This document shows positions 1 to 21,445 of a stretch of 21,445 nt of DNA, in pieces. Below the pieces are notes generated by a model, which was given only the letters and a program-made list of their open reading frames with translations, was not told where the DNA came from and searched no databases. The DNA is from a virus (taxonomy: Duplodnaviria; Heunggongvirae; Uroviricota; Caudoviricetes), in the IMG/VR virus record IMGVR_UViG_2778261069_000007; one strand, written 5' to 3'. How positions within the stretch are numbered: the stretch's first letter is position 1; each line of letters starts with the position of its first letter. The position numbers and the translations under genes were made by a program.

Positions 1-496
1 TCATAAGGCTGAAAGTCAGTCTTTCTTTGTATTTTTTATTTATTGCAGTTACTTCTTTTTGTTTTGGTTTATCACCAAGTTTTTTTATTTCTTCTTTATT
101 TTGATTTCTGATAAATTCATTACTTATTGTTTCTAAATGAGAAAAGAGAGTGTTCAGACTGCATGAACCGTGGTGATACATATAGAGACCAGAAAGATTA
201 GATTTTTTAATTAAGAAAAAGTTGAAATTAGCAAGTTTGTCACTTCCTTTAAGATCTTCAATTTTAAGCTGGAATTTACCATCAACAAATTGCGACTTAC
301 AGTTCTTTTTTTGGTTTCTGAATGTGACAACTAATCCATAATAGAAATCATTCACATCCGAAATGAGAATTTTACGAGTATAGTCTGTGCGACTGTGTTC
401 TCTGTTTGATGCGTTGATAAAAGCATTCATTACGTCAACGGTATTAATGTTTTTGTTATTGTTATTTATTGTAAATCCTATGCTTCTAACTTTCAT
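1..496 (-). CDS. Hypothetical protein, partial (3' end beyond window start); AT-rich accessory (moron) gene
   Basis: Minus-strand frame open from ATG (complement of 494-496) to position 2, then continues off the window; translation begins MKVRSIGFTINNNNKNINTVDVMNAF. First 60 nt are about 27% GC, against roughly 55% in the structural genes. A perfect TATAAT on the minus strand (complement of 575-580) lies about 80 nt upstream. No recognisable family. Confidence 0.45.
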   Translation of the reverse strand, partial: MKVRSIGFTINNNNKNINTVDVMNAFINASNREHSRTDYTRKILISDVNDFYYGLVVTFRNQKKNCKSQFVDGKFQLKIEDLKGSDKLANFNFFLIKKSNLSGLYMYHHGSCSLNTLFSHLETISNEFIRNQNKEEIKKLGDKPKQKEVTAINKKYKERLTFSLM

Positions 497-620
497 GTGT
501 ATTCCAGGACCGACTAAAGATAGCGAGAATGGGGACGCATAGTTTATAAAAATCCTAACGCGTACGCAAAAAGTATTATATCGTGTTAAGAGTGGTTACT
601 TCGCCACACAACTTAAATCC

Positions 621-3235: not shown

Positions 3236-3571
3236 ATGCCTCATAACCCAAATACCTGGCCGGACTGGCTGGAGTTGTTCCAGAGCTGGTGGCGTGGAGA
3301 TACGCCGCTGGGCGCAGTGATTATGTCGATTGTTATGGCTGGTTTGCGTATTGCCTATTTTGGTGGTGGTGGCGGCTGGAAACGAAAAACACTCGAAATT
3401 TTGCTCTGTGGCGCTCTGACGCTGACATTTGCATCCGCGCTTGAGTATGTCGGATGGCCTAAATCGCTTTCTGTTGCCATTGGTGGTGGGGTGGGGCTGA
3501 TCGGGGTCGATGCAATTCGTGGGGCTGCAATGAGAGTAATCGGTAACAAGTTTGGTGGCTCTAAGGAGTAA
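3236..3571 (+). CDS. S: Holin, lambda S-like (class I, three predicted TM segments)
   Basis: Pattern and length resemble lambda S (hydrophobic segments, glycine-rich turn, charged C-terminus). Directly precedes the endolysin. ORF opens at 3212; start at the in-frame ATG 3236 was chosen, but 3212 is possible (dual start?). Confidence 0.8.
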   Translation: MPHNPNTWPDWLELFQSWWRGDTPLGAVIMSIVMAGLRIAYFGGGGGWKRKTLEILLCGALTLTFASALEYVGWPKSLSVAIGGGVGLIGVDAIRGAAMRVIGNKFGGSKE

Positions 3572-5025: not shown

Positions 5026-5197
5026 TGTTATTTTTAGCGGGTCCTCCTGGCGATTTGAAACACCGGGGGGCTGTGGACACGCGGAAAACGGCTGGTTTTT
5101 TGCATTTTATCGGCATCATCATCTTTTATCTAACCTGTTGATATTTCAGTTGTGAAATTATTCACGATGTCGATTCGCTTAAATATTGTTCACCATC

Positions 5198-5704
5198 ATG
5201 GATAACGAACTGAAAAATCTTCGCCTCAATATTAACCAGCTGGCGGCGCTGACTAATCTGCATCGTCAGACCGTCGCAAGTAGACTGAGCAATGTTGAGC
5301 CTGCCCCCGGAAGTAACTCCCGCCTCAAGCTGTATTCAGTTCTGGATATTCTCAGGGAATTACTGGGCAGGACTACGACGCCGGAGCTGGTTGCTGTTGA
5401 CAAAATGACACCGCCGGATCGAAAGGCGTGGTTTCAGTCTGAGCGGGAGCGCCTCAAGTTTCAGCAGGAGACCGGAGAGCTTATCCCGGCCTCAGAAGTC
5501 AGCCGGGAGTTTGCCTCAATGGCAAAAGCTGTCGTTCAGGTACTGGAAACGCTACCGGATATTCTCGAGCGTGACTGTGCAATGACACCGTCAGCCGTCG
5601 TCAGGGTGCAAAAAGTCATAGATGACCTGCGGGATCAGATTGCCATGAAGGTTGAGCTGGCAGAGTCGCCGGAACAGGAGGACAGTTTGTCACAAGAGGA
5701 GTAA
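5198..5704 (+). CDS. Terminase small subunit (Nu1-like, N-terminal HTH)
   Basis: ORF opens at TTG 5186; first ATG is 5198 (MDNELKNLRLNINQLAALTNLHRQTVASRL, HTH-like). Immediately upstream of the large terminase. Confidence 0.8.
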   Translation: MDNELKNLRLNINQLAALTNLHRQTVASRLSNVEPAPGSNSRLKLYSVLDILRELLGRTTTPELVAVDKMTPPDRKAWFQSERERLKFQQETGELIPASEVSREFASMAKAVVQVLETLPDILERDCAMTPSAVVRVQKVIDDLRDQIAMKVELAESPEQEDSLSQEE

Positions 5705-5707
5705 GCC

Positions 5708-7825
5708 ATGCGACAGGCCACGGCGGCGGAAGTCAGAAAGAATACCGCCGGGATCATAAAGGCACCGCGTCGGATGCCTGTTGCCGAGGCCGTTCATAAG
5801 TACATGCGGGTTCCCGTGGGCGTCGGAAACTCCGTCGAATGGGATCCGCAACTCGCCCCCTATGTCGTGGAGCCGATGAACTGCCTGGCATCACGTGAGT
5901 ATGATGCTGTTATTTTTGTTGGTCCGGCCCGAACAGGTAAAACAATTGGGCTGATTGACGGCTGGGTGGTGTACAACGTGGTGTGTGACCCGTCGGATAT
6001 GCTTATCGTCCAGATGACGGAAGAAAAAGCGCGTGAACACTCCAAAAAACGTCTGGCCAGAACATTTCGCGTCAGCCCGGAAGTGGCATGCAGGCTGAGT
6101 CCGTCGCGTAACGATAACAACGTTCATGACCGCACGTTTCTTGCCGGAAACTACCTCAAGATTGGCTGGCCCTCCGTCAACATCATGTCATCCTCGGATT
6201 TTAAATGCGTTGCACTGACGGATTACGACCGTTTTCCGGAGGATATCGACGGGGAAGGCGATGGTTTTTCGCTGGCCTCAAAACGAACCACCACATTTAT
6301 GTCGGCGGGCATGACCCTGGTGGAGAGCTCGCCAGGGCGGGAAATCACCAATACCAAATGGCGACGAAAATCACCCCATGAAGCGCCACCCACTACCGGT
6401 ATTCTGGCTTTATATAATCGCGGTGATCGCCGTCGATGGTACTGGCCCTGTCCGCACTGTGGTGGGTACTTTCAGCCTGCTATGGAGGCGATGACCGGTT
6501 ACCGGGATATTGCCGATCCGGTAAAAGCCAGTGAAGCGGCACATATCGTCTGCCCGCACTGTAACGGGGTGATCACAGCTGATAAAAAGCGGGAGCTTAA
6601 CGGACGTGGCGTCTGGCTCAGGGAAGGTCAGAGCATTGATAAAGCCGGGAATATATCGGGTGATGCCCGTCGTTCCCGCATCGCGTCCTTCTGGATGGAA
6701 GGTCCCGCCGCGGCTTACCAGACCTGGGCACAGCTGGTTTACAAATTACTGACGGCAGAGCAGGACTATGAAACCACAGGCAGTGAAGAAACACTGAAAA
6801 CGGTGATCAACACTGACTGGGGCTTACCTTATCTGCCACGCGCGGCGACCGAACAGCGCAGGGCTGATGTACTGATGCAGCGGGCGGAGGACTACGGTAA
6901 ACGTCTGGTACCACCGAAGGTGCGTTTTCTGCTGGCATCGGTGGATGTACAGGGCGGGAAGAAACGTCGTTTTGTGGTGCAGATTATCGGTTACGGTGAG
7001 AACGGCGAACGCTGGCTGGTGGATCGCTATAACATTCGTCAGTCCCTGCGCTGTGATGAAAACGGCGAGGCACTGACGATTCATCCGGGCTCTTACCCTG
7101 AGGACTGGCAGTTGCTGATCACGGATGTGCTGGAGAAAACATACCCTCTCCAGTCAAATCCTTCCCGCCGTATGCCCGTGCTGGCTATGGCTGTGGACAG
7201 TGGGGGTGAGGATGGTGTGACGGATAATGCGTATAAGTTCTGGCGCACATGCCGCCGTGATGGTCTGGGAAAACGGGTATACCTGATAAAAGGTGACAGT
7301 ACCCGTCGCCAGAAAGTGATCACCCGAACACACCCTGATAATACCGGACGAAGCGATCGCCGGGCTGATGCCCGCGGCGAAGTACCGGTATATCTGTTGC
7401 AGACCGATCTGCTCAAAGATCAACTCAGCAATAATCTGGAGCGTGAAACCCCGGGGGCCGGGTATATCCATTTTCCCGACTGGCTCGGTGAGTGGTTTTA
7501 TGAGGAGCTGACTTATGAGGAGCGGGGCAGCGACGGAAAATGGCGCAAGCCAGGTAAAGGGAACAACGAAGCATTCGACCTGTTCTGCTATGCCCATGCC
7601 GTCGCTATTCTGCGTGGTTACGAAAAAATCCGAGACTGGGAGCAGCCGCCTGCCTGGGCGGCATCTCAGGACACAAATCCGGACATTATTGACGGGGAAC
7701 GCCCCGGGGAGAGGGGAGTGAAAAAAGCGATATCCGCTCGTTCATCTCCGGTTGCCGTCACCGAACAGGCCAGCCCACTGTCTGGCGGCTGGCTGGGGGT
7801 CAGTGGTAACGGAGGCTGGCTATGA
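5708..7825 (+). CDS. Terminase large subunit (GpA-type ATPase/nuclease)
   Basis: 705 aa; Walker A motif VGPARTGKT; CxxC...CxxC pairs (CPHCGG, CPHCNG) as in lambda-A-type terminases. GAGGAG RBS upstream. Confidence 0.95.
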   Translation: MRQATAAEVRKNTAGIIKAPRRMPVAEAVHKYMRVPVGVGNSVEWDPQLAPYVVEPMNCLASREYDAVIFVGPARTGKTIGLIDGWVVYNVVCDPSDMLIVQMTEEKAREHSKKRLARTFRVSPEVACRLSPSRNDNNVHDRTFLAGNYLKIGWPSVNIMSSSDFKCVALTDYDRFPEDIDGEGDGFSLASKRTTTFMSAGMTLVESSPGREITNTKWRRKSPHEAPPTTGILALYNRGDRRRWYWPCPHCGGYFQPAMEAMTGYRDIADPVKASEAAHIVCPHCNGVITADKKRELNGRGVWLREGQSIDKAGNISGDARRSRIASFWMEGPAAAYQTWAQLVYKLLTAEQDYETTGSEETLKTVINTDWGLPYLPRAATEQRRADVLMQRAEDYGKRLVPPKVRFLLASVDVQGGKKRRFVVQIIGYGENGERWLVDRYNIRQSLRCDENGEALTIHPGSYPEDWQLLITDVLEKTYPLQSNPSRRMPVLAMAVDSGGEDGVTDNAYKFWRTCRRDGLGKRVYLIKGDSTRRQKVITRTHPDNTGRSDRRADARGEVPVYLLQTDLLKDQLSNNLERETPGAGYIHFPDWLGEWFYEELTYEERGSDGKWRKPGKGNNEAFDLFCYAHAVAILRGYEKIRDWEQPPAWAASQDTNPDIIDGERPGERGVKKAISARSSPVAVTEQASPLSGGWLGVSGNGGWL

Positions 7826-8037
7826 CGAAATCTGAAATCCAGCAGATGCTGGTCACGGTACGCCAGGCGTATCGTGATTCTCTGGACGGGAAAAGCGTGT
7901 CTTTTACTGGCGTGAATGGGCGCGCCATTACCAACCATGATCCCGTCGCACTTCGTAAAGAGCTTGAATACTGGGAAAAACGCTGGCAGGCCGTCAACGG
8001 TCGCGGCACCAACTTCAAACTCGCTAACTTTCTGTAA
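7822..8037 (+). CDS. Head-tail joining protein, lambda W-like
   Basis: 71 aa; start overlaps the terminase stop (ATGA); GGAGG RBS. Size and position match lambda gpW; weak pattern similarity only. Confidence 0.65.
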   Translation: MTKSEIQQMLVTVRQAYRDSLDGKSVSFTGVNGRAITNHDPVALRKELEYWEKRWQAVNGRGTNFKLANFL

Positions 8038-8045
8038 GGTCATTC

Positions 8046-9557
8046 ATGGGCATTTTTGACAGGGCACTTGGCGCGATTGCGCCAGGGTGGGCTGTTTCGC
8101 GCGCCAGAAACAGAATGCTTCTTCGCGCCTACGAGGCGGCGCACCCCTCCAGAGTGAACAAAACAAAACGTGAGAGTCGGGCGGCAGATACTGCGGTGGG
8201 TGTGGCTGGCGTATCTCTGCGTGAGCAGGCACGGGCACTGGATGAAGACCATGACATAGTGATTGGTCTGCTGGATAAGCTGGAAGAACGTGTTATTGGT
8301 GCGCAGGGGATCCAGGTGGAGCCGCAACCGCTCAGTCTGGACGGTAAGCTGCATGAAGAATTTGCAGCACAGATATCTGCACTCTGGTCGGAATGGTCGG
8401 TGCGTCCGGAGGTGACGGGGGTGTTTACCCGTCCGGAAGCCGAGCGACTGGCGCTGCGTTCAGCACTGCGTGATGGTGAGATGTTCACGCAGCTGGTGCG
8501 GGGCCCGGTTGCTGGACTGACGCACGCAACCCGAGTGCCGTTTTCACTGGAACTGCTGGAAGCTGATTTTGTCCCGTTCAGTCTTAACAGCACATCGGGG
8601 CAGCAGATCCGCCAGGGCATTATCGTTAACGACTGGGGGCGTCCTGTTGGTTACCGGGTTTACAAATATCACCCGGCCAGTATGACGCGCTTCAGCGCTG
8701 AACTGAAAACCATTGCGGCAGAGAACATGCTGCACCTTGCCCAGCGTAAACGCCTTCACCAGTTACGTGGCATAAGTCTGCTTCATGGGGTGATCCGCCG
8801 TCTGGGTGACATTAAGGACTACGAAGAGAGCGAACGTGTGGCTGCCCGCATTGCTGCCGCGCTGGGCTTCTACATCAAGCGTGGTGATGCCGCCAGCTTT
8901 CCGGCGGATGAAGACTGGAAACCCTCAGGACAAAAGTACCGCCACTTTGATATTGCGCCAGGCATGATTTTTGACGACCTTGCGCCGGGGGAAGATCTGG
9001 GCATGGTTGAGTCAAACCGTCCGAACGTCCACCTCCATGAGTTTCGTAACGGGCAACTGCGGGCGGTTGCCGCCGGGAGTCGCGGCAGCTATTCCAGTAT
9101 TGCCCGTGACTACAACGGCACCTACAGCGCACAACGTCAGGAACTGGTGGAAAGTTACGAAGGTTATAACGTCCTGCAGCAATGGTTTGTGGGGCAGTTC
9201 AGCCGTCCGGTGTACCGCGCATGGCTGGCAATGGCGCTGCTTGACATGGATATCCCGCCTGATATCGACAAAACCACGCTCTTTAACGCGACCTATCTTG
9301 GTCCGGTGATGCCGTGGATTGATCCCGTCAAAGAGGCTGCAGCATGGCGGGCCATTCTTCGTGGTGGAGCAGGAACGGAAGCCGAGTGGATCCGTGCCAG
9401 AGGGCAGTCACCGCAGGAGGTCAAACGCCAGCGAATGCGTGAAACCGAATTTAACCGACAAAACGGGCTGGTGTTCGATTCTGACGCCGCCAACGATAAA
9501 GGAGTGCTCCCTGATGCAGCAAATGATAAGCCCGCCCTGTCGCGGGATGACGATTAA
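8046..9557 (+). CDS. Portal protein (lambda B family)
   Basis: 503 aa; sits between W-like and the protease/capsid gene, where lambda-type portals lie. Confidence 0.85.
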   Translation: MGIFDRALGAIAPGWAVSRARNRMLLRAYEAAHPSRVNKTKRESRAADTAVGVAGVSLREQARALDEDHDIVIGLLDKLEERVIGAQGIQVEPQPLSLDGKLHEEFAAQISALWSEWSVRPEVTGVFTRPEAERLALRSALRDGEMFTQLVRGPVAGLTHATRVPFSLELLEADFVPFSLNSTSGQQIRQGIIVNDWGRPVGYRVYKYHPASMTRFSAELKTIAAENMLHLAQRKRLHQLRGISLLHGVIRRLGDIKDYEESERVAARIAAALGFYIKRGDAASFPADEDWKPSGQKYRHFDIAPGMIFDDLAPGEDLGMVESNRPNVHLHEFRNGQLRAVAAGSRGSYSSIARDYNGTYSAQRQELVESYEGYNVLQQWFVGQFSRPVYRAWLAMALLDMDIPPDIDKTTLFNATYLGPVMPWIDPVKEAAAWRAILRGGAGTEAEWIRARGQSPQEVKRQRMRETEFNRQNGLVFDSDAANDKGVLPDAANDKPALSRDDD

Positions 9558-11592
9558 TCCCCGCGCCAGCCTTGCAGGTGTCGATGCCGCAAACGGTCAG
9601 TGCTGGTACGAAATCCGTGCACAGGCAACCGGACGGGTGGAAATTTTCCTCTATGACGTGATTGGTGGATGGGGCATCACCGCGCAGCAGTTTATCACTG
9701 ACTGTAAAGATGCGGGGGTGTTTGAGGCCAGCGCCATTGATCTGCATATCCACAGCCCGGGCGGTGATGTGATGCAGGGCTTTGCCATCTTTAACACGCT
9801 GTCACGCCTGAAAGCGAAGGTGGATATCTGGGTGGATGGTGTCGCTGCCAGTATGGCATCGATGATCGTCTGCCTTCCCGGAGCCACAGTACATATGCCT
9901 GAAAACGCCTGGATTATGGTGCATAAGCCCTGGGGCGGGATCGCCGGTGATTCCGATGATATGCGTGATTATGCCGACTGGCTGGATCGCAACGAGGCGC
10001 TGATGCTGTCTGCCTACATGAATAAAACCGGACTGGGGCAGGAGGAGCTGGAGGCCATGCTGAAAGCGGAAACCTGGCTCAGCGGCGCTGAAGCTGTGGA
10101 AAAGGGCTTTGCAGACTCCCTCGAACCCGAATTACAGGCTGCGGCCTGTGTGAACCAAAATAAACTGAAGGATTATCAGAATATGCCAGAACAGGTTAAT
10201 GCTCTTTTTGCTCCGCGTGCGGAAACTCAGGTTACCCCACCGCAGGCCAGCCAGCCTCCGGCACCACAGGTATCTCAGGACACGCAGCAGCCAGGCGCCG
10301 TAGATATTGCCGCGCTGGCCACTCAGCTTCAGCAGCAGATGCAGGCTGCCAATGCGGAACGTGTGAACGCTGTCTCTGCCGTGTTCGACGCATTTCCGGC
10401 ATTTGCCTCGCTGAAAGCGGAATGCCTGAGCGATTTCACCTGCTCGGCTGAAAAAGCCCGTGAACGACTGCTGCAGGCGCTGGCGGCGGGTACCACGCCC
10501 TGTGCCGGGCCGGGAGCAGCACACATTTACGCAGGCAACGGCAATCTGGTGGGTGATTCCATCCGTGCAGCAGTGATGGCTCGCGCAGGGTACAGCGAAG
10601 CCGAAAAAGACAATGCCTATAACGGCTTTACGCTACGCGAACTGGCGCGTGCCTCACTGGTGGATCGCGGCATCGGAATTTCCGGACATGCCGCACCGAT
10701 GGCAATGGTGGGGCTGGCATTCACCCACAGTGGCAGTGACTTTGGCAATATCCTGATGGATGTTGCTCACAAAGCGGCACTGCAGGGCTGGGACAGCGCC
10801 AGTGAAACGTTTGACCAGTGGACCCGCAAGGGCACCCTCTCAGATTTTAAAACTGCCCACCGTGTGGGGCTGGAGGCTTTCCCGACCCTGCGACAGGTTC
10901 AGCCGGGCGCTGAATATAAGTATGTAACCCTTAAAGATCGCGGTGAGCCCATTGCGCTGGCTACGTATGGCGAACTCTTCAGCATTGATCGCCAGACCAT
11001 CATTAACGATGACCTGGATATGCTGACCCGTATTCCGATGGCAATGGGAGCAGCAGCGCGTACCACGGTGGGCGATCTTGTCTGGGCCGTACTGACCAGC
11101 AACCCGAAAATGTCTGATGGTAAACCGTTGTTCCATGCCGATCACGGCAACCTGGTGACTGCGGATCTGTCCATTGAAGGACTGGATGCGGGGCGTAAAG
11201 CCATGTTGCTGCAAAAGTCCGGTAGCCGCCGCCTGAATATTCGTCCGGCCTTTATGCTGACACCTGTTGCCATTGAATCTCGGGCAAGTCAGTTAATTAA
11301 ATCTGCCAGTGTACCGGGGGCAGATGCCAACAGCGGCATTGTTAACCCGATCCAGAACTTTGCCACCGTTCTGTCAGAAGCCCGTCTGGATGACAGCAGC
11401 CCGACCGATTATTACCTGGTGGCGGCACAGGGGCGTGACACAATTGAAGTGGCCTATCTTGACGGTATCGATACTCCGTATCTGGAACAGCAGCACGGCT
11501 TTACCGTTGACGGGGCCGCATTCAAAGTGCGCATTGATGCCGGGGTCGCACCGCTTGACTGGCGGGGCATGGTTAAAGTCAAAAAACAGTAA
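9514..11592 (+). CDS. Fused head maturation protease (ClpP/S14-like) and major capsid protein precursor
   Basis: ORF 9319..11592; start at ATG 9514 (AAGGAG at 9501-9506) overlaps the portal 3' end. N-terminal ClpP-like region (IHSPGGDVMQG, GVAASMASMI, MVHKPW), Q/P-rich linker, C-terminal capsid-like domain of about 350 aa. Terminator follows. Confidence 0.85.
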   Translation: MQQMISPPCRGMTINPRASLAGVDAANGQCWYEIRAQATGRVEIFLYDVIGGWGITAQQFITDCKDAGVFEASAIDLHIHSPGGDVMQGFAIFNTLSRLKAKVDIWVDGVAASMASMIVCLPGATVHMPENAWIMVHKPWGGIAGDSDDMRDYADWLDRNEALMLSAYMNKTGLGQEELEAMLKAETWLSGAEAVEKGFADSLEPELQAAACVNQNKLKDYQNMPEQVNALFAPRAETQVTPPQASQPPAPQVSQDTQQPGAVDIAALATQLQQQMQAANAERVNAVSAVFDAFPAFASLKAECLSDFTCSAEKARERLLQALAAGTTPCAGPGAAHIYAGNGNLVGDSIRAAVMARAGYSEAEKDNAYNGFTLRELARASLVDRGIGISGHAAPMAMVGLAFTHSGSDFGNILMDVAHKAALQGWDSASETFDQWTRKGTLSDFKTAHRVGLEAFPTLRQVQPGAEYKYVTLKDRGEPIALATYGELFSIDRQTIINDDLDMLTRIPMAMGAAARTTVGDLVWAVLTSNPKMSDGKPLFHADHGNLVTADLSIEGLDAGRKAMLLQKSGSRRLNIRPAFMLTPVAIESRASQLIKSASVPGADANSGIVNPIQNFATVLSEARLDDSSPTDYYLVAAQGRDTIEVAYLDGIDTPYLEQQHGFTVDGAAFKVRIDAGVAPLDWRGMVKVKKQ

Positions 11593-11595
11593 TAC

Positions 11596-11620
11596 ACCGC
11601 CGCGTCAGGCGGTTTTTTTT
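11596..11620 (+). terminator. Intrinsic terminator/attenuator after the capsid gene (CCGCC-GCGTCA-GGCGG + T8)
   Basis: Hairpin 11597-11612 followed by TTTTTTTT. Confidence 0.6.
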
Positions 11621-11662
11621 ACTCAGGCGGCACCGTCGGGAGCCGCTTATACGGAGGTAAAA

Positions 11663-11992
11663 ATGTCAAAAAATTACGTTCAGGACGGTACAACCGTTGA
11701 ATGGGTGAACGATAGCGGTAAAACCGTTTTATCCGGTGAACTGGTCGTTAAAGAAAATCTGATCGGGGTGGCGCATGCGGATATTCCGCAGGATGGAACA
11801 GGTGTTTTGCATACCACGGGGATTTTTGCATTACCCAAAGAAGCAGAGGAACTGACACAGGGAAAACGGGTATATCTCAGGTCTGATACTGCCACGCTGA
11901 CAGCAACAGAATCGGGCAATGCGCTGGTGGGAACCGTATGGGCAGCGGCAGAAACCAGCGATGCTACCGTGTGTGTGCGTCTCGGTTACTGA
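11663..11992 (+). CDS. Putative head decoration / capsid cement protein
   Basis: 109 aa; ATG 11663 preceded by GGAGGT; small beta-rich protein directly after the capsid gene. Assignment by position and size. Confidence 0.55.
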   Translation: MSKNYVQDGTTVEWVNDSGKTVLSGELVVKENLIGVAHADIPQDGTGVLHTTGIFALPKEAEELTQGKRVYLRSDTATLTATESGNALVGTVWAAAETSDATVCVRLGY

Positions 11993-12348
11993 TGGGCAAT
12001 TTCCATGAACGGCTGATGCGGGCAGAGGCCCGCATAACGCGACTTTTTGCGCAACCATACCCCGCAGTGTTGTACATCGGTAATGAATGTCGTCAGGTGA
12101 ATGTGATTTTTGAAACGCCGGATGCTCCGGTCAGTGTTCCGGGCGGCGGAGAAATCAGCAATCACGCCCCGGCATTCAGTGCGATGACGGCGGATATTGT
12201 CGGACTGTCCAGGCATGATGAGGTGCTGGTGAACAATATTCGCTACCGGGTAACGCATGTCGGTGCGAACGAAGCCGGGCGCACCCGTGTCACGCTGGCG
12301 TATGGCGCACCGGGAAACGTTCAGCCACCGATTGAACAATGGAGCTGA
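11992..12348 (+). CDS. Putative head completion / head-tail adaptor protein
   Basis: ATG at 11992 overlaps the upstream stop (TGATG), suggesting translational coupling; 118 aa; position between head and tail genes. Confidence 0.55.
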   Translation: MGNFHERLMRAEARITRLFAQPYPAVLYIGNECRQVNVIFETPDAPVSVPGGGEISNHAPAFSAMTADIVGLSRHDEVLVNNIRYRVTHVGANEAGRTRVTLAYGAPGNVQPPIEQWS

Positions 12349-12349
12349 T

Positions 12350-13006
12350 ATGGCGCGAGGATCCAGACTGCGACGGGATTTACCGGTCGATATTGATGTG
12401 GATGCTATCTGGCAGATTGCGGACAGTATCGGTGCCACACAAAAACAGTTTCGGGCAGCCTACTCCCGGGCGCTCAGACGAACTGCTGCCACCCTGCGCA
12501 AAAAAGCGCTGGCTGATCTGAAAGACGGGCTGGCGCCGCGCAGTATCGGGCTGGTACGCCGCCGTCTGCTCTCTTTTCGCCTCGACAGAGGCTCCCGGCT
12601 GGATAATTTCAGGCTCTGGTTTGGTCTCAACGCCATTAAGGTTAAAGACCTGAAAGGGCGAATTAACGGGCGGCTACGCCCACGCCATACCCTGCGGGAT
12701 AAATCCACGGGGCGTTTTATCAAAGCTCGTCGGCAGGTAAAAAATGCCGGGTTTACGCCTAAAGGCAGTCTGCTTTCGACACTGACCTTCGAAAATGGCG
12801 AAGTCGCCCGCTCAAAACGAGAGAACCGACGAACGGTGGTTATTCGTGATCCGCAAACCCGGCGTACCCGGGAAGCGGAGGTGGATATTTACGAACCGAT
12901 GCTCAATTACATTGAAGATAACGCCTTTGCCGAAGCAATGGACATTTTCATGCACCATTTTGAAACAGATATCCGTGGGCGGGTGAAAGCCAGGATATCT
13001 GTATGA
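12350..13006 (+). CDS. Hypothetical virion morphogenesis protein, strongly arginine-rich
   Basis: ORF 12257..13006; ATG 12350 lies 1 nt after the upstream stop with GGAG upstream; 218 aa. Confidence 0.55.
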   Translation: MARGSRLRRDLPVDIDVDAIWQIADSIGATQKQFRAAYSRALRRTAATLRKKALADLKDGLAPRSIGLVRRRLLSFRLDRGSRLDNFRLWFGLNAIKVKDLKGRINGRLRPRHTLRDKSTGRFIKARRQVKNAGFTPKGSLLSTLTFENGEVARSKRENRRTVVIRDPQTRRTREAEVDIYEPMLNYIEDNAFAEAMDIFMHHFETDIRGRVKARISV

Positions 13007-13016
13007 GGTCATCACA

Positions 13017-13568
13017 ATGGCTGAACCTTTATCTCTGGCCCGATACCACGATGCGGTTATCAGTGCGCTAAAGCAGATAACGTGGGTAAGTGATGCCGGA
13101 GCTTATCCTGAAAAAAATATTCCCCGTTTCACCGGGCTGGTGACACCTGCCGTGTATTTCACGATTAACAGCTGGGAGCAGAGCGGCGGCAATGAGGGGC
13201 AACTCAATGTTGAACTCTCGTGCGATCTTTATGTGGTGGTTGATGCCGCGTCTGGTCTCAGTTGTCCGGAAATCTTCCTGCGAACAGCGGCAGCAGATAT
13301 TACGCAGTGGATTGACGGGCAACAGTTTGGTCTGACTCACATTTCACCCGCCGTATTCACTGCTGCAGAGCGTGACGAATTTGATCCTCGCATGGATGAC
13401 TACCTGGTGTGGCGTGTGTCGTTTACCCAGGAGGCGGCTTTTGGCGTGGATCCGTTCGCCCGCACCGCTATGCCACTGAGTCAGGTCTGGCTGGGAGTAG
13501 CACCGGATACAGGGCGGCAGCATGTGGACGACTATTACCTTATCCTGGAGGCGGGAGCTGATGAGTGA
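13017..13568 (+). CDS. Putative neck / tail completion protein
   Basis: 183 aa ORF in the neck region; no diagnostic motif recognised. Confidence 0.55.
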   Translation: MAEPLSLARYHDAVISALKQITWVSDAGAYPEKNIPRFTGLVTPAVYFTINSWEQSGGNEGQLNVELSCDLYVVVDAASGLSCPEIFLRTAAADITQWIDGQQFGLTHISPAVFTAAERDEFDPRMDDYLVWRVSFTQEAAFGVDPFARTAMPLSQVWLGVAPDTGRQHVDDYYLILEAGADE

Positions 13569-14178
13569 CATTACAGGGGATTTGCAACGCAGACTGGCAA
13601 ATCTGGTACGACGCGGTGTGATTCATTCTGTCCGGCATGATGGTATCCCCAAATGCCGGGTTGATCTGGGCGATATCATCACGACCTGGCTGCCGCTGTG
13701 TCAGGGTTTTTCTGGCGCAAACCGGGCTGATTCGAATCCTTATGCCGTCGGTGATGCGGTGACAGTGTTGTCGGAGGCCGGAGAGTTAAACAACGGGCGG
13801 GTGTTTCCTGGCTGGAACACCGGGAAATTACCCGTGCCGGAGGGCAGCGACAGCGAACATATTACCCGTTACAGCGACGGCACAGAGATCCGGTATGACC
13901 GGGCAGCTCATGCCCTGACGATCACCCTGACCGAAGGAGGCACTTACAAAATCACCGGTAAGGGTACGCTTGATGGTCCGGTTGAAATCACCGATACCCT
14001 GACTGTACAGGGGAAAACGCAGATTAACGCCGATACGACGGTGAAGGGTAATATTGGTGCCTCTGCAGAAATTACCGACAAAACCGGCAGTATGAGCGGG
14101 ATCCGCAACATCTTTAACGAGCACAACCACCCCGGCGACAGTGGCGGGAGTACGGATAAACCTAATCAGAAAATGTGA
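13561..14178 (+). CDS. gpV-like baseplate central spike protein
   Basis: ORF 13522..14178, start at ATG 13561. N-terminus (LVRRGVIHSV...CRVDLGD...TWLP) and C-terminal HxH...GDSGG apex motif (NEHNHPGDSGGST) resemble P2 gpV as recalled. Confidence 0.65.
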   Translation: MSDITGDLQRRLANLVRRGVIHSVRHDGIPKCRVDLGDIITTWLPLCQGFSGANRADSNPYAVGDAVTVLSEAGELNNGRVFPGWNTGKLPVPEGSDSEHITRYSDGTEIRYDRAAHALTITLTEGGTYKITGKGTLDGPVEITDTLTVQGKTQINADTTVKGNIGASAEITDKTGSMSGIRNIFNEHNHPGDSGGSTDKPNQKM

Positions 14179-14199
14179 CCTGCTGCGGCAGGTTTTTTT
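14179..14199 (+). terminator. Hairpin plus T-run between the spike and sheath genes (CCTGC-TGCG-GCAGG + T7)
   Basis: Read directly from the sequence; probably an attenuator within the late operon. Confidence 0.5.
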
Positions 14200-14215
14200 A
14201 TGGCTGGAGAAAGAC

Positions 14216-15685
14216 ATGTCTCAGTTACATGGTGTTGAAACAATTGAACTGACCTCGGGAACTGTGGCGGTGACCACTATCCAGACGGCTATTATCGGTC
14301 TGGTGGGCACGGCACCGGAGTCGTCTGCCGGGAGTGCGGCAGCGGTCACCACCGGGACGCCGATTCTGGATAACGTTCTGAACTTCACAGCAAAGGAGAG
14401 GGGCCGGGCTGGCAATGTTATCCAGGTGGACGCGGTGGCGGCGGTACCAGATACGGAAAGCCCGCAGGCTGTTAACACATCGGCATCCTGGGATGACGTT
14501 ACGCATAAACTGACGGTGACACTGGGCTGTGATGAGCAGGGGGTGATCACGGCGCGACCTGCTGATGTGGTCAGTGTGGTCAATGCGCTGGATGGCGTCA
14601 AAGTTCAGGCCGAAGGCAGTGGCGAGGGGCTGTTGGCAACGTTCAGTGTAAAGCTGGAAGGGGGCGAAGATGAGCCTTTTCCGTTAAATACGCCTGTGGC
14701 TGTGGCGGGCACCGCGCTCATTAATCGTCTGGGAGACAAGGGGACTCTCAAACAGGCGCTGACAGAGATTAATGATCAGCGTAATGCGCTGACAGTGGTG
14801 GTGCGGGTGGCTGATGAAACTGACGGGGCAAAAAAACGGGCAGCCATACTGAAAGGGATTGGGCTTCTGTCATCAGCAAAATCCATTACCACGTATCAGC
14901 CACGTATTGTGATTGCGCCGGGATTCAGTGAGGACGATGCGGTCGGGAAAGCCCTGGAAACGGTGGCCGGAAAATTACGTGCGGTGGCCTATGTTGACTG
15001 TGCTTCCGGAGCAACGTTGCAGGAGGTGGTACAGCGCCGTCAGTCCTATGGTGCCCGTACTGAACTGTTGCGACCGCGTGTTCAGGCTGCCGATGCGGAT
15101 GGCCAGTTAGTGTATCGCCCTTACTCTGCTTTTGCCGCCGGATTACGTGCCCGTATCGACTACGAAAAGGGCTGGTGGTGGAGCAAATCGAACCAGGACA
15201 TCAACAATATCCTCGGAGTGGAGCAGATCGACGAATTTATTCTCGGGGATGAAAACTGCGATGCGAACCTGCTCAACATGCAGAACGTATCCACCATTAT
15301 CCGTCGTGCGGGCTTTAAACACTGGGGAAACCGTCTGTGCGCAACCGATCCGCAGTGGCGTTTTGAATCCGTACGACGTACAGCAGATGTTATCGAGGAC
15401 AGCATTCAGGAAACCATGCTGGAGTATGTTGACCGTCCGCTGGATCGCGAAAATGCCGATGACATTATCGGCACCATTAATGCCTATATGCGACAACTGG
15501 TCGGACTGGGCGCCATCTTCGGCGGTCGGGCCTGGCTGGATGAAGAACTTAATACCGCAGAGAGCATGGCGGCAGGTGTCCTGTATATCAACTATGACTT
15601 TGGACCGAAATCGCCGACTGAACTTATCAGTCTGCGCGTCCGGGTGAATAATAACTATGCGCTTGAGGAGATGCTGGCAGCATGA
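14216..15685 (+). CDS. Contractile tail sheath protein
   Basis: ORF 14141..15685, start ATG 14216 (GGAGAAAGAC upstream); about 490 aa; followed by an overlapping tube gene, the canonical sheath-tube pair. Confidence 0.9.
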   Translation: MSQLHGVETIELTSGTVAVTTIQTAIIGLVGTAPESSAGSAAAVTTGTPILDNVLNFTAKERGRAGNVIQVDAVAAVPDTESPQAVNTSASWDDVTHKLTVTLGCDEQGVITARPADVVSVVNALDGVKVQAEGSGEGLLATFSVKLEGGEDEPFPLNTPVAVAGTALINRLGDKGTLKQALTEINDQRNALTVVVRVADETDGAKKRAAILKGIGLLSSAKSITTYQPRIVIAPGFSEDDAVGKALETVAGKLRAVAYVDCASGATLQEVVQRRQSYGARTELLRPRVQAADADGQLVYRPYSAFAAGLRARIDYEKGWWWSKSNQDINNILGVEQIDEFILGDENCDANLLNMQNVSTIIRRAGFKHWGNRLCATDPQWRFESVRRTADVIEDSIQETMLEYVDRPLDRENADDIIGTINAYMRQLVGLGAIFGGRAWLDEELNTAESMAAGVLYINYDFGPKSPTELISLRVRVNNNYALEEMLAA

Positions 15686-16188
15686 GCGATAAAAATACAC
15701 TACGTGCCTGGACTTTCTTCCGGCAGGGGATCCGTATTCAGGGGGCGCATGAGTTTACGCCGCCATCGCTGACAATCGTGAAAACTGACCTGCGAACTGG
15801 TGCCCAGGATGCACCCACGCCCGTGGATGACGGGATGGAAGCACTGACCTGTCAGGTGAAATTTTACGGTCTGGACACGGATATGCTGGCCAGCTTTGGA
15901 TTTGTCAGTGGCAGTCGTTCCCGCTTTACGGCCTACCAGGGGTATCTCGGCAACGGTACTGCTCGCGGTACTGTTGAGGAAATTGAAGGGTTTATTCAGG
16001 CTGTCACGCCGGATGCGCGGGGTAAGGATAATCTTTCTGAAAATGCCATCACGGTCGATATTGCGGTCAGTTATTACCGACAGACGCTGGATGGTCGTGA
16101 ACTGTTTGCCATTGATACCGAGCGCTTTTCCCGCCGGGTGAATGGTGTCGATATGTTATCGGGTCTGGCGGCAAAAGTTCGTCTCTGA
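15682..16188 (+). CDS. Tail tube protein
   Basis: 168 aa; start overlaps the sheath stop (ATGA); followed by terminator and chaperone. Confidence 0.8.
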   Translation: MSDKNTLRAWTFFRQGIRIQGAHEFTPPSLTIVKTDLRTGAQDAPTPVDDGMEALTCQVKFYGLDTDMLASFGFVSGSRSRFTAYQGYLGNGTARGTVEEIEGFIQAVTPDARGKDNLSENAITVDIAVSYYRQTLDGRELFAIDTERFSRRVNGVDMLSGLAAKVRL

Positions 16189-16213
16189 TTATTCCCGTTC
16201 TTTAACTACCTGA

Positions 16214-16233
16214 CGGCCTGCGGGCCGTTTTTT
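16214..16233 (+). terminator. Hairpin plus T-run after the tube gene (CGGCC-TGCG-GGCCG + T6)
   Basis: Read directly from the sequence. Confidence 0.5.
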
Positions 16234-16246
16234 AATGGAGGTGATT

Positions 16247-16546
16247 ATGCCTTTTCCCGGTGAAACCCGCGTTATCCGATTGTTTTCCCCTGTCACTCTG
16301 GAGGGTGGCGTGATCCTTGAGGAAGTGACGATGCGTGAACCGCTGGTGCGCGATCGTATTGCTCATGCCAAAGATCGCGGTAATGAAGAAGAAAAAGAAG
16401 CCCGGATGATTGCGCTGTTGTGCAACCTCAGTGAAAAGGACATCTGGCAACTGACGGCTGCAGACTATGCGCAACTGCTGGATGCCTTCAATGTTTTTAT
16501 GCTACCGCCCGCGAAGCGTCCGAAAGACACCTCCTCCGGGCGATAA
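16247..16546 (+). CDS. Tail assembly chaperone (P2 E-like); possible frameshift extension, see findings
   Basis: ORF 16235..16546; ATG 16247 has GGAGG five nt upstream. About 100 aa, immediately upstream of the tape measure gene. Confidence 0.7.
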   Translation: MPFPGETRVIRLFSPVTLEGGVILEEVTMREPLVRDRIAHAKDRGNEEEKEARMIALLCNLSEKDIWQLTAADYAQLLDAFNVFMLPPAKRPKDTSSGR

Positions 16547-16648
16547 AACTCCTTGGACGGCGACTGCATTTTCCTATGTCGGACTATCTGGATATGCCGT
16601 TCAGCACTTTCTCTGATTTTCTTACTGATGAACTGGAGACGATGAACC

Positions 16649-18559
16649 GTGGGCGGAATAAGCCAGAATCTTAAAGCCGTTATCACGTTTGGCGGTAACC
16701 TGGACAGTTCATGGAAGCGATCGGCTGACGGTTTACAAAAGAGCCTGAATGATGTCGGGAAACGTTCAGAACGTCTGACAAAGGAGCAGACAAAACTGGC
16801 TGCTGAAATTAAACGCGCGAAACTGGCAGGTGAAAGTCTGGGAAATTTGAAACGCCGTTATAGCGAAGTTTCCAGAGAGATCCGCAAGGCAGAGGCAGAG
16901 CAGCAGAAACTGAATGTCCAGATGCAAAAAGCACAGCGGATTGAGGCATTCAAAGGTGCCGGGAAGGGATTGTTCCGGCGTGGTCTGGGGATTGCCGGTC
17001 AGGTCGGAGGTATGTTCGGTACCGGACTGGCATTTGGTGGCGGTGGTGTGGTGGCCTCAGCGCTCGGCACGCTTATCGCCCCGGCAGCAACGAATGCTGA
17101 AACTGCCACCCGCGCCAGTGTGGCGAAAAGCTACGGTGTGGATGTCGCCACCTTCAGTGCGTGGGACTCCCTGGCCCGGCAGTACGATATGAATGCCGAA
17201 AATATTGGTGACCTTTTTGAGGAGTATCTGCACAAAGCGGGTGAGTATAAGCAAAACGGGAAACAGGGCTCTCTTCAGGATGCCTTTGAAACGCTGGGGT
17301 TTAAAGAGGGCGATTTTGCCGGGCTCAGTGATATGGCGCAGTTCGATAAAATTGTTGAGCGGGCGCTCAGTCTCCAGGATGAGGCAAAAGCATCTTTTGC
17401 GCTGGACTCTCTTTTTGGCGGGGAGGCCAGTAAGCTGCTGATGCTGATCAAACAGTCGGGCAGAAGCTACCGGGAGCTGATGGACGAGCAGCGTCGTTAT
17501 AACCTGGTGACCCGGGAGGGGGCAGAAGGTGCGATTGCCGGTAATCAGGCTATCAGTAATCTGCGCACGGTGTTCTCTTCGGCGGTGGCGGAGATTTCCG
17601 GGCAACTGGGTAATGAGCTGGCACCTGATATCCGGCGATTAACGGACGATTTGGCAGACTGGTTTAAAGGGGGCGGCGTCAGGCGTATTGTCACTTTCCT
17701 GCGTAACGATCTTTATCCCGGGGTGTTGAGCTTTGGTCAGGGCGTGGTTTTTGTTGGCAAAATTGTCTATGCGCTGGCTAAAAAACTGGCCTGGCTGTTA
17801 CCGGATGAGCGTGAAGATCAGCGTGATGTGCTGAAGGCGCTCGCCAGAAGTGGTTCCGTTGACCTTGCCAGACTGACCGCGCAGCGAAGTGGACAGGGGG
17901 AATGGTTTGAACAGCAGTTAACAGCGCATCCGGACTTACCGGAAAAGGTGAAACAGTCCTGGACATCGACACGTGGTTATTTTGGTTTTGATTCGGATGA
18001 TGAGGCATTTAACCAGTCTGTTGATCACTATCTGACCCCGGAAAGCCACGAATCCTTATTAAACTGGAATACCGCTTTACAGCGTAACCAGCGGGAGTCT
18101 GCATCGTTGCCCCCGGTAACAACGGAAAATAACACAGTTATTCATACCACTCCGACGACGACAGAAAACAACACATTTATGCATTACGTTCCGGCAATGA
18201 CGGAGAACAATACCGAAGCCTGGAATAAAGATGTGTTACCTCCCGTCTTTCCTGCTGTTCTACCGGAATTCACATTTTCTTCACGACAACAACAAGCCCC
18301 GGATCCGCGTTCTGCCAGAGAGCAGGAGGACAAAACAGGGGACTACTGGGAAAACCTGCTGCAGAAAATGGACGCACTGGATAAACAGCCGCCATCCAGG
18401 CAGGTTATCGATAACCGGAAGTTTGATTATCACTTCGAAATTAATGCAGCTCCCGGGCAGGATGAAAAAGCCATTGCCGATGAACTGACCACGGTCACCC
18501 GAAATCATCCGGCTTTTAACGGGGACAACCGTCTGACGGATGGAGGACTGGTCTGGTGA
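16649..18559 (+). CDS. Tail tape measure protein
   Basis: 636 aa; GTG start at 16649 directly follows an in-frame stop, so no upstream ATG is possible. Coiled-coil N-terminus and glycine-rich hydrophobic segment (GIAGQVGGMFGTGLAFGGGGVVASALG). Confidence 0.85.
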   Translation: MGGISQNLKAVITFGGNLDSSWKRSADGLQKSLNDVGKRSERLTKEQTKLAAEIKRAKLAGESLGNLKRRYSEVSREIRKAEAEQQKLNVQMQKAQRIEAFKGAGKGLFRRGLGIAGQVGGMFGTGLAFGGGGVVASALGTLIAPAATNAETATRASVAKSYGVDVATFSAWDSLARQYDMNAENIGDLFEEYLHKAGEYKQNGKQGSLQDAFETLGFKEGDFAGLSDMAQFDKIVERALSLQDEAKASFALDSLFGGEASKLLMLIKQSGRSYRELMDEQRRYNLVTREGAEGAIAGNQAISNLRTVFSSAVAEISGQLGNELAPDIRRLTDDLADWFKGGGVRRIVTFLRNDLYPGVLSFGQGVVFVGKIVYALAKKLAWLLPDEREDQRDVLKALARSGSVDLARLTAQRSGQGEWFEQQLTAHPDLPEKVKQSWTSTRGYFGFDSDDEAFNQSVDHYLTPESHESLLNWNTALQRNQRESASLPPVTTENNTVIHTTPTTTENNTFMHYVPAMTENNTEAWNKDVLPPVFPAVLPEFTFSSRQQQAPDPRSAREQEDKTGDYWENLLQKMDALDKQPPSRQVIDNRKFDYHFEINAAPGQDEKAIADELTTVTRNHPAFNGDNRLTDGGLVW

Positions 18560-19026
18560 GTAATTTCATGTCTTTTATTGATGAATTTGGTCAGCAACAG
18601 GCTGAAAACCTGCGTTCGGCAGTAACCACCCGCGTGATGATGATGCTGGGAGATTTTGCTTTTTCGATTGATACGACAGCCTATAACCAGCTGACCCGCG
18701 AAGCAACCTGGCGCTGGAGCGAACAGGAGCGCATTGGTAAGCAGGATCTTCTCCAGTACACCGGAAAGCCGGGGCGTACCGTCAGACTTGAAGGCGAATC
18801 CCATGCCTTTTTTCGAAAAGGTGTTGGCCCCGTCAATGACCTGTTTGCTCTTGCCGACCAGGCGAAGCCACTGCAGCTGGTCAGTGGAGAAGGGGATGTT
18901 CTGGGATGGTGGGTGGTAACTGACTTTACTGACACCACTAACCGGTTCCTGCCGGGAGGTGGTCACCGTAATAAAAACTGGACAATGACACTGAAACACT
19001 ATGCCGACGATATATCAAACCCGTGA
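18556..19026 (+). CDS. Tail protein, P2 gpU-like
   Basis: 156 aa; the motif MMMLGDFAFSIDT...TWRW...RIGK resembles P2 gpU as recalled. GTG 18556 (GGAGGA upstream) or ATG 18568 are both possible starts. Confidence 0.75.
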   Translation: MSNFMSFIDEFGQQQAENLRSAVTTRVMMMLGDFAFSIDTTAYNQLTREATWRWSEQERIGKQDLLQYTGKPGRTVRLEGESHAFFRKGVGPVNDLFALADQAKPLQLVSGEGDVLGWWVVTDFTDTTNRFLPGGGHRNKNWTMTLKHYADDISNP

Positions 19027-19216
19027 CGGTGATGTGCTGGATGCGATTTGCGCCGCGCACTATGGCAGCGAAAATCTCGCTGACACGATAATCCAGGTTC
19101 TGGAGGCAAATCCCGGGCTGGCTGATCGTGGCGCGGTATATCCCTCCGGTCTGTCTGTTATTCTGCCGGAACGGGTGATCCCGGTTGTGGAGTCTGCTTT
19201 CAGCTTATGGGATTAA
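19001..19216 (+). CDS. Tail protein, P2 gpX-like
   Basis: 71 aa; DGDVLDAICAAHYG...ANPGLA...LPE pattern resembles P2 gpX as recalled. Confidence 0.75.
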   Translation: MPTIYQTRDGDVLDAICAAHYGSENLADTIIQVLEANPGLADRGAVYPSGLSVILPERVIPVVESAFSLWD

Positions 19217-19217
19217 T

Positions 19218-20336
19218 ATGGTTTCTCAGACGATGACTCCTGAATATGCGCCAGCATTCCGCATAAAGGCAGAAGGGAAAGATATTACCCGCATACTTGA
19301 GCAATGCCTTTCTGAACTGACGCTGACAGATTACGGTGGCGCGACCGCCAGAGCCGATGAACTGAAAATTACCCTGCTTTCTGAAACGCTGACACTTCCG
19401 CCCAGAGGGGCGCGACTACAGGTTGCGCTGGGATTTAATGAGCAGCTTGTCGATAAAGGCTGGTTTGTTGTCAGCGGAGTTGCCAGCAGTGGGCCACCGA
19501 GGCGCATTGAAATTTATGCCACCGCAGCGCCCATGAATGCACGCAAGCAACCCGGTGACGTCACCAGTCAGAAAACACGAAGCTGGGATAACATTCGTCT
19601 GGAGGATGTGGTGAAAACCGTGGCCACCGATAATGGCCTGATCCCCAGAGTCGCTGCCGCGCTGAAAGATATTCACATTAACCACATCGACCAGGTGGCT
19701 GAATCTGATGCTAACCTGCTGTCCCGGCTTGCCCGCATCTACAACGCGGTGAGTAAACCTTCCGGTGGTTACTGGCTTTTTCTGCCGCAGGGGGCGACAG
19801 CGACAGTTTCCGGTAAACAGATTGACAGTATCACCATTACGCCTGCAGACGTGACAACGTGGTCATACAGTGAAGGTGAGCGGGGGAGTTCCACGGGTAA
19901 AGTCACGGAAAGCGGGGGTAAAGCAAAAGAGAAAATCGGGGTTCGCTATTACGATGAAGTGGATGGCAGGACAAAAACCGCAGCGGTCGAACATGACGGA
20001 CCGGCAATGACCAACCCGTATACCCAGTCAGAAAAGGATACGGCAGAGAAGCAGGCGAAAGCACGAAAAACACAGGCAAGACGGAATGAGCAGAAAATGA
20101 CGCTCACCGGCCCCTGCCGACCACAGCATATTCCCCTGACGGCAGAAGCAGGGGGGGCAACCTCAGGATTTGGTACCCGGGAAGACAGAGCCTGGGTGGT
20201 TGAGTCGCTGGTCTTTTCACTGACCGCTGCCGGATTCAGTTATACCTGCAATCTGGTGGTGGATATTCACAAACCACAAAAATCAGCAAAAAAATCGAAG
20301 CAACAGGATAAAACTGGTCCGGCTTACTTCGGTTAA
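19218..20336 (+). CDS. Tail/baseplate hub protein, P2 gpD-like (late control D family)
   Basis: ORF 19185..20336; ATG 19218 lies one nt after the X stop; about 372 aa. Confidence 0.8.
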   Translation: MVSQTMTPEYAPAFRIKAEGKDITRILEQCLSELTLTDYGGATARADELKITLLSETLTLPPRGARLQVALGFNEQLVDKGWFVVSGVASSGPPRRIEIYATAAPMNARKQPGDVTSQKTRSWDNIRLEDVVKTVATDNGLIPRVAAALKDIHINHIDQVAESDANLLSRLARIYNAVSKPSGGYWLFLPQGATATVSGKQIDSITITPADVTTWSYSEGERGSSTGKVTESGGKAKEKIGVRYYDEVDGRTKTAAVEHDGPAMTNPYTQSEKDTAEKQAKARKTQARRNEQKMTLTGPCRPQHIPLTAEAGGATSGFGTREDRAWVVESLVFSLTAAGFSYTCNLVVDIHKPQKSAKKSKQQDKTGPAYFG

Positions 20337-20342
20337 TCCATC

Positions 20343-20360
20343 GCGCCATCCGGCGCTTTT
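20343..20360 (+). terminator. Weak hairpin plus T4 between D-like and W-like genes (GCGCC-ATCC-GGCGC + TTTT)
   Basis: Read directly from the sequence; short T-run. Confidence 0.3.
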
Positions 20361-20376
20361 GTAACGGAAAATCATC

Positions 20377-20730
20377 ATGAACGGTGTAAACAGCCGGACA
20401 GGCAAACGTCTGTCTGGCGTGGCGCATTTGCGCCAGTCTGTCCGGGACATTCTGACCACGCCCGTCGGGAGTCGTGTGCTGATCCGTGACTATGGCAGTG
20501 AACTGTTTTCGTTGCTGGATAACCCACGGGATGACCTGACGCGTCTGCGGATAATCGCCGCTTCAGCGACTGCACTGGCTCGCTGGGAGCCGCGTTTAAA
20601 GGTGACGCGGGTGATGGTCACCTTCCCGGCGGGCGAATCCGGTTGTGTTCTGGATATCGAAGGGATCAACAAAGAAGACGGCTTACCCGTCAGAACAGGA
20701 GAAATAACGCTAAATGCCCAACAGTTATGA
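20377..20730 (+). CDS. Baseplate assembly protein W (P2 gpW / T4 gp25 family)
   Basis: 117 aa; the motif ILTTPVGSRVLIRDYGS matches the conserved core of gpW as recalled. Confidence 0.85.
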   Translation: MNGVNSRTGKRLSGVAHLRQSVRDILTTPVGSRVLIRDYGSELFSLLDNPRDDLTRLRIIAASATALARWEPRLKVTRVMVTFPAGESGCVLDIEGINKEDGLPVRTGEITLNAQQL

Positions 20731-21421
20731 TGTGATCAATCTGTCGGAACTCGCTGTTCCTGATGCGCTTGTAGTGCCGGATGCCGCAGAGATTTTCTCC
20801 CGATGGCTGGCACGTCTGCAGGAGCTGGATCCGCAGTTTGATGCGCTGGTAGAGTCCGATCCGGCGTTTAAACAGGGAGAGGTGAATGCATATCAGCTGA
20901 CGCTGGCCTTTCAGCGTGTCAATGATGCAGTGCGGGCAGTATTTCTTGCCAGCGCCAGAGGCGCAGACCTTGATCAGATTGGCGCTGCCTTCAATGTTAA
21001 ACGCCAGGTTATCAGACCGGGTGATCCGGATGCCGTTCCCCCCGTCGAAGTGGAACTGGAAGATGACGGCGCATTTCGTGAACGTATTCAGTTGTCCTGG
21101 GCACAGCTAAATACGGCGGGTGCCCGCAACGCTTACCGCTTCCATGCGAAATCGGCGGATACCGATGTGCTGGATGCTGAAGCTTATGGCCCCGAAACAC
21201 ACAGCCGCCCGGGGTGTGTTGATGTGTATGTGCTTTCCCGTACGGGAGACGGAACAGCAGCTGCAACACTGCTGGATAAAGTTAACAGCACACTGAATGC
21301 CGATGAAATCCGTCCATTTGCGTATTCCGCTCTATTCGATCACGGATTGGCATCGAAGTCCGATCAGCGATTCGCATCCATTCGATCAACCGGGAACTTA
21401 ACTTTTTCTACCGCTTTTTAA
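20714..21421 (+). CDS. Baseplate protein J-like, apparently C-terminally truncated or divergent
   Basis: 235 aa against about 300 for P2 gpJ; the first 200 aa or so follow the gpJ pattern (INLSELAVPD...NDAVRAVFLASARGADLDQIGAAFNV), then a non-J-like 30-aa tail ends 24 nt before the window edge. Confidence 0.75.
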   Translation: MPNSYDVINLSELAVPDALVVPDAAEIFSRWLARLQELDPQFDALVESDPAFKQGEVNAYQLTLAFQRVNDAVRAVFLASARGADLDQIGAAFNVKRQVIRPGDPDAVPPVEVELEDDGAFRERIQLSWAQLNTAGARNAYRFHAKSADTDVLDAEAYGPETHSRPGCVDVYVLSRTGDGTAAATLLDKVNSTLNADEIRPFAYSALFDHGLASKSDQRFASIRSTGNLTFSTAF

Positions 21422-21445
21422 CGCGTTTTTTCGCTGCTTTCCACT

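Follow-up and report, generated by a model that had tools for sequence, protein, structure and literature searches.

A reading frame for a J-like baseplate protein begins near the right-hand edge of a 21,445-nucleotide stretch of tailed-phage DNA (referred to throughout as the window), follows the J pattern for most of its length, and then ends with a short foreign tail. The question that this locus raises is whether the gene and the tail genes normally found beyond it have been lost from the prophage, or whether the apparent truncation has another origin. The original prediction, made from the letters alone, left three explanations side by side: a deletion or rearrangement junction in a defective prophage, the breakpoint of an insertion, or the boundary of a contig at a repeat. 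It also pointed out that the tail genes I, H and G are missing, and indeed none of them is present in the 21,445 bp of the window, which an exact-protein look-up identified as the entire contig PTRS01000069.1 of assembly GCA_002965725.1. The source of this assembly is probably Escherichia albertii.

The prophage is a mosaic (window 5186-20730), in which a non-P2-like head is joined to a P2/pyocin-like contractile tail. The head module comprises a DUF1441 protein upstream of a 705-aa large terminase, a portal, and a ClpP protease-major capsid fusion; the tail genes are those for sheath, tube, chaperone, gpU, X, a D/VgrG-like protein, W and J. The 636-aa ORF in the tape-measure position (16649-18559) has no Pfam match. 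A long part of the tail region (window 15959-21318) is 100% identical in three E. coli wastewater isolates (SW0716xx), where a J gene of 921 nt precedes those for tail protein I, a tail fibre and fibre assembly. The prophage of these isolates is itself a remnant: its whole head module is missing, and an IS1 has a truncated gabP on one side and the tail tube gene on the other (NZ_CM129855.1 locus 6907-7889). The prophage of the ssrA locus has thus decayed independently, via different IS events in different hosts.

At the opposite end of the contig the sequence has a different character. Window 1-500 is very AT-rich (GC 0.30, versus about 0.55 for the structural genes), and its minus-strand ORF (2-496), which continues past the contig edge, has no Pfam match. 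We considered whether this left end, too, lies at an IS-type repeat. The first 400 nt of the window have counterparts of ≥99% identity in 218 complete E. coli genomes, with a single occurrence in nearly every one; since the sequence is single-copy in almost all the genomes that have it, and is not that of an IS, this possibility was rejected.

The chimeric reading frame at the right edge

Directly upstream of J lies a gpW/gp25-type baseplate gene (20377-20730, plus strand; Pfam PF04965, GPW_gp25), which is annotated as 'GPW/gp25 family protein' in the identical locus of E. coli SW071611. J opens on the same strand at 20714, and the frame that starts there (20714-21421) encodes 235 aa and closes with a TAA at 21419-21421, leaving, as the original prediction had it, 24 nt to the end of the window. 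This ORF is a chimera. Its residues 1-201 are identical to those of a 306-aa J-type 'baseplate assembly protein' (WP_059258960.1); when residues 1-202 are compared with this intact protein by BLASTP, there are 201/202 identities and no match beyond, and residues 202-235 (34 aa) bear no relation to J. The switch from about 200 J-like residues to about 30 foreign ones, which had been noticed from the translation, can thus be given its exact proportions of 201 and 34. In nucleotide comparisons, window 20300-21318 is 100% identical to the J locus of E. coli SW071611, where the gene is intact, and a three-way alignment places the break between J and foreign sequence between positions 21318 and 21319. 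What the window holds of the gene is therefore its 5' 605 nt (20714-21318, plus strand), that is 201 codons and 2 nt, with 100% identity to the intact gene. The 34-aa tail is the J frame reading through the non-coding terminus of an insertion sequence (IS) to the first in-frame stop.

The effect of this break on the protein can be seen by comparison with intact J, as rebuilt below. The intact protein matches Pfam family PF04865 (Baseplate_J) with 94.6 bits over residues 114-260, corresponding to profile positions 111-252 of 255; in the window ORF the same match is cut at residue 202, with profile positions 111-194 of 255 covered. Intact J can also be aligned over its whole length with PA0618, the baseplate protein of R-type pyocin (Tri1a, PDB 6u5b; E 2e-58), and the isolated C-terminal domain of PA0618 (PDB 5ces) maps to J residues ~210-298, which is the part removed from the N-terminal product. 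The 235-aa protein was found by exact-protein look-up on one contig only, PTRS01000069.1. In a search of 5,426 complete E. coli genomes with the whole window, the junction between J and the IS was absent, and the intact J locus was found in three records. A megablast search of the phage collection gave no match to window 20300-21445.

The terminus of an IS21-family element

The sequence that follows the break is the right-hand terminal 127 nt of an IS21-family element (21319-21445, minus strand), which lies opposite to J and is cut by the contig end. Matches to this terminus are present in 654 of the 5,426 complete E. coli genomes, on chromosomes as well as on plasmids, with up to 33 places per genome; 712 E. 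coli records match it at ≥99% identity. When matches were sampled across the entire ranking, most alignments were seen to begin exactly at window 21319, with the dinucleotide TG, and for this reason 21319 is taken as the terminus of the IS. The element that starts at this position is annotated 'IS21-like element ISSso4 family', a name that we take from the NCBI (PGAP) annotation only; the part of it in the window is the istB-proximal end.

Three independent full copies were examined, inserted respectively in vat (E. coli VTB97074v), sbp and fimE. Each is 2,639 bp long, with ends TGCGTA...TTTTGCA, and in each the 127 nt found in the window are identical, with 0 mismatches. The TG...CA ends (TGCGTATT...CCATTTTGCA) are shared by the three copies and by both junctions of the genome studied here. 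The full copies carry istA (a DDE transposase) and istB (an AAA+ helper ATPase) in tandem: IstA matches NF033546 (transpos_IS21) with 285 bits (cut-off 160) and contains rve and Mu-transposase C-terminal domains, while IstB matches NF038214 (IS21_help_AAA) with 258 bits (cut-off 200) as well as Pfam PF01695 (IstB_IS21). All that the window holds of these two genes is the 3' end of istB (21418-21445, minus strand), namely the last 8 codons (VESSEKTR) and the stop, whose coordinates map onto the annotated istB of the vat copy (WP_001282653.1). The stop of the chimeric J (21419-21421, plus strand) and that of istB (21418-21420, opposite strand) share two bases, a coincidence of the read-through frame.

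The original prediction had also drawn attention to a repetitive stretch in the foreign tail. Its repeats are present, and they are not a product of chance: two 18-nt direct repeats, CGATCACGGATTGGCATC at 21337-21354 and CGATCAGCGATTCGCATC at 21361-21378, are spaced by 24 nt, and a further pair of 19 nt is found at 21324-21342 and 21370-21388. The repeat units recur in inverted form at the opposite end of the full IS, where there are five of them with a spacing of 22-24 nt. The terminal inverted repeats (TIRs) of IS21-family elements are built from several direct repeats (L1/L2, R1/R2) that lie about 23 bp from one another; these are needed for IstA-mediated integration, and the ends carry a terminal CA (PMC10122671). 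The repetitive stretch is made of the direct repeats that form the TIRs of an IS21-family element, on which the IstA transposase acts, and the two 18-nt units are putative binding units of the IstA transposase, of the R1/R2 type.

The size of the target duplication was established from the full copies and from the second junction described below. Two independent copies are flanked by 6-bp duplications, CCCAGT in sbp and CCTGAA in fimE. The vat copy (E. coli VTB97074v, 3501-3504 and 6144-6147) is flanked by a 4-bp direct repeat only, CATT, and the 4 nt that precede the IS in vat are the same as the last 4 nt of the target in J; this short flank could reflect chance, an atypical insertion, or later recombination between IS copies. 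A duplication of 4 bp, as derived from the vat copy, with CATT perhaps being part of the IS, was considered and rejected on the basis of the spread sample of matches, the two further copies, and the reciprocal junction.

The reciprocal junction and the rest of the tail module

If the IS had simply been inserted into J, the other half of the gene should be found next to the other end of the element. We predicted this reciprocal junction by joining the last 127 nt of the IS to a duplication of 4-8 bp and to the rest of J, and listed the resulting ORFs. Nine of the 10 predicted proteins, built with duplications of 4 or 5 bp or from alternative start codons, are not in the protein collection; the one match came from the combination of a 6-bp duplication with the second ATG. 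This product of 126 aa, which begins MPNHDRFECQTAIDSDAILHPLTDYV from an ATG inside the IS end, is an exact match to WP_241957585.1, a 'baseplate J/gp47 family protein [Escherichia albertii]' that is found on a single contig of 30,892 bp. Its gene occupies positions 69-449 of PTRS01000052.1, in the same assembly, GCA_002965725.1, as the window. Exact-pattern scans of two contig collections that lack this assembly, genome_contigs and viral_contigs, gave no match either to the predicted reciprocal junction or to the junction present in the window.

The sequence of PTRS01000052.1 mirrors that of the window. It opens with 127 nt from the other end of the IS, with 1 mismatch to the vat copy; positions 128-133 read TCCATT, the same as window 21313-21318, which is the target site and represents the other copy of the 6-bp duplication; J then continues, with a sequence identical to that of the E. 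coli SW071611 locus. When window 20714-21318 is joined to PTRS01000052.1 134-449, a 921-nt ORF is restored, whose product is identical to the 306-aa WP_059258960.1. Throughout the first ~6 kb past the junction there are two differences only between PTRS01000052.1 and the E. coli SW071611 locus. The window, for its part, stops exactly 127 nt into the IS. De Bruijn-graph assemblers of the SPAdes type end contigs at repeats in this way when k = 127, and the 127-nt overhangs are presumably the k-mer length of the assembler.

The genes that appeared to be missing are found on the same contig. On the 3' side of J, PTRS01000052.1 encodes a Tail_P2_I protein (187 aa), a tail fibre (562 aa) and a Caudo_TAP fibre assembly protein (194 aa); W and the 5' part of J in the window and the remainder on PTRS01000052.1 together give the tail order W-J-I-fibre-fibre assembly. 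These genes are followed by a methyltransferase, a DinI-like gene, smpB, ratA, bamE and recN, and the same downstream gene order is found in E. coli SW071611, with ssrA there located between the prophage end and smpB. The methyltransferase, of the class I SAM-dependent type, is encoded on the minus strand beyond the fibre assembly gene, and a second fibre assembly (Caudo_TAP) gene, which is partial, comes after it (PTRS01000052.1 2683-4316; E. coli SW071611 locus 15569-17202); the methyltransferase may be a cargo gene inserted in a former alternative-fibre cassette.

Origin of the truncation and its consequences

An insertion of an IS21-family element in J, together with a contig break inside the IS repeat, explains the apparent truncation with a probability that we estimate at about 0.95. 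According to this explanation, the 2,639-bp istA-istB element would have entered J at codon 202 by transposition, oriented against the gene, with duplication of TCCATT. The IS, being presumably multi-copy, would have brought a short-read de Bruijn-graph assembler to a halt, leaving both flanking contigs to end 127 nt inside it; that there are several copies in this genome is suggested by the contig break itself. Since both contigs stop 127 nt in, it is the orientation of the IS ends and the target duplication that point to a single complete IS as the link between them. Of the three explanations originally offered, two are therefore found to hold jointly, as the IS begins after 21318 and the contig boundary falls 127 nt into it, while the third, a deletion or rearrangement that took away the downstream tail genes, is not supported, given the intact module on PTRS01000052.1. 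An intact downstream module, coupled with an equally short J in related phages, had been named as what would speak against the original prediction: the module is indeed intact, but the J of relatives is full-length.

The alternative that fares best is one in which the two junctions are real but separated, either by recombination between IS copies (inversion or translocation) or by a larger composite insertion bounded by two ISs. Both contigs do end inside the IS, the element can be highly multi-copy in related genomes, and the atypical 4-bp flank of the vat copy may indicate a later rearrangement at that site. A perfect 6-bp duplication and correctly opposed IS ends fit a simple insertion, which is the most economical reading, and there is no positive sign of rearrangement; we thus consider separated junctions quite improbable. 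A deletion, possibly an IS-mediated adjacent deletion, of the 3' part of J and of I, H and G would have left a truncated prophage, and it was suggested by the content of the window as well as by the decay seen in a relative, the prophage of E. coli SW071611 being cut by IS1 near the tail tube gene. This is refuted, to the extent that we give it almost no weight, by the presence on PTRS01000052.1 of the missing J segment and of intact I, fibre and fibre assembly genes, accompanied by the reciprocal IS end and the target duplication. Nothing speaks for a naturally short, conserved variant of J, or for a chimeric assembly of a gene that holds no real IS, except that the ORF stays open for 235 codons, and both can be dismissed: among the best 120 relatives the full-length proteins have 302-306 aa (the members of two clusters of shorter ones, at 276 and 287 aa, correspond to part of J only), the 235-aa form is confined to one contig, its last 34 aa are a translated non-coding IS terminus, and an assembly artefact would not be mirrored on another contig by a reciprocal junction that matches it and carries a 6-bp duplication.

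With regard to function, the splitting of J and the absence of the C-terminal domain from its N-terminal product suggest that the baseplate would be unable to assemble and that the prophage would be without functional tails. Transcription of the 2.6-kb IS in the opposite direction would probably also lower the expression of the downstream tail genes. Judging from homology to P2 gpJ and to PA0618, the prophage is probably tail-defective. The earlier suggestion of a defective prophage was thus a reasonable one, as J is physically split, but the defect would lie in the disruption of a gene and not in the loss of the tail module. It is conceivable, if very improbable, that the split J might still work, with its N-terminal 201 residues and the C-terminal product of 126 aa being expressed separately and complementing each other in the baseplate; the C-terminal piece would in that case be made from the ATG inside the IS end, as in the annotated WP_241957585.1, and the IS would leave the prophage, or a tailocin descended from it, functional.

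In practical terms, the apparently short J and the missing tail genes should be annotated neither as a prophage with a deletion nor as a novel short form of J. Contigs PTRS01000069.1 and PTRS01000052.1 can be placed in one scaffold by way of a single copy of the IS; the late region of the prophage at the ssrA locus is then complete and has no visible lesion other than the IS-disrupted baseplate gene. The value of the result lies in this correction of the annotation and in the scaffolding of the two contigs; the case is otherwise an ordinary one, a textbook example of how IS elements inactivate prophages and of how multi-copy ISs break short-read assemblies.

Every component of the locus is already known: an IS21-family element, a gene of the Baseplate_J family, and a contig break at a repeat. 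The element resembles members of the IS21 family, such as IS21 and IS5376, in its tandem istA-istB, its TG...CA ends, its TIRs composed of direct repeats 22-24 nt apart, and its short target duplication; it differs from IS5376 in that this duplication is 6 bp here as opposed to the reported 5 bp (PMC10122671). The head module is unlike that of P2 in having the DUF1441 protein and the ClpP-capsid fusion. J, on the other hand, belongs with the P2 gpJ / Baseplate_J (gp47) family, which includes PA0618, as judged by the common profile and by the gene order D/VgrG-like, W/gp25, J, I, fibre, fibre assembly. Among isolated phages, the nearest one found on the basis of J is Citrobacter phage Chris1 (ON041214.1), in which the gene is full length and uninterrupted, with 88% amino-acid identity; compared with the P2 gpJ family, the J of the prophage studied here is distinguished by being split after codon 201, with an N-terminal product that lacks the C-terminal domain.
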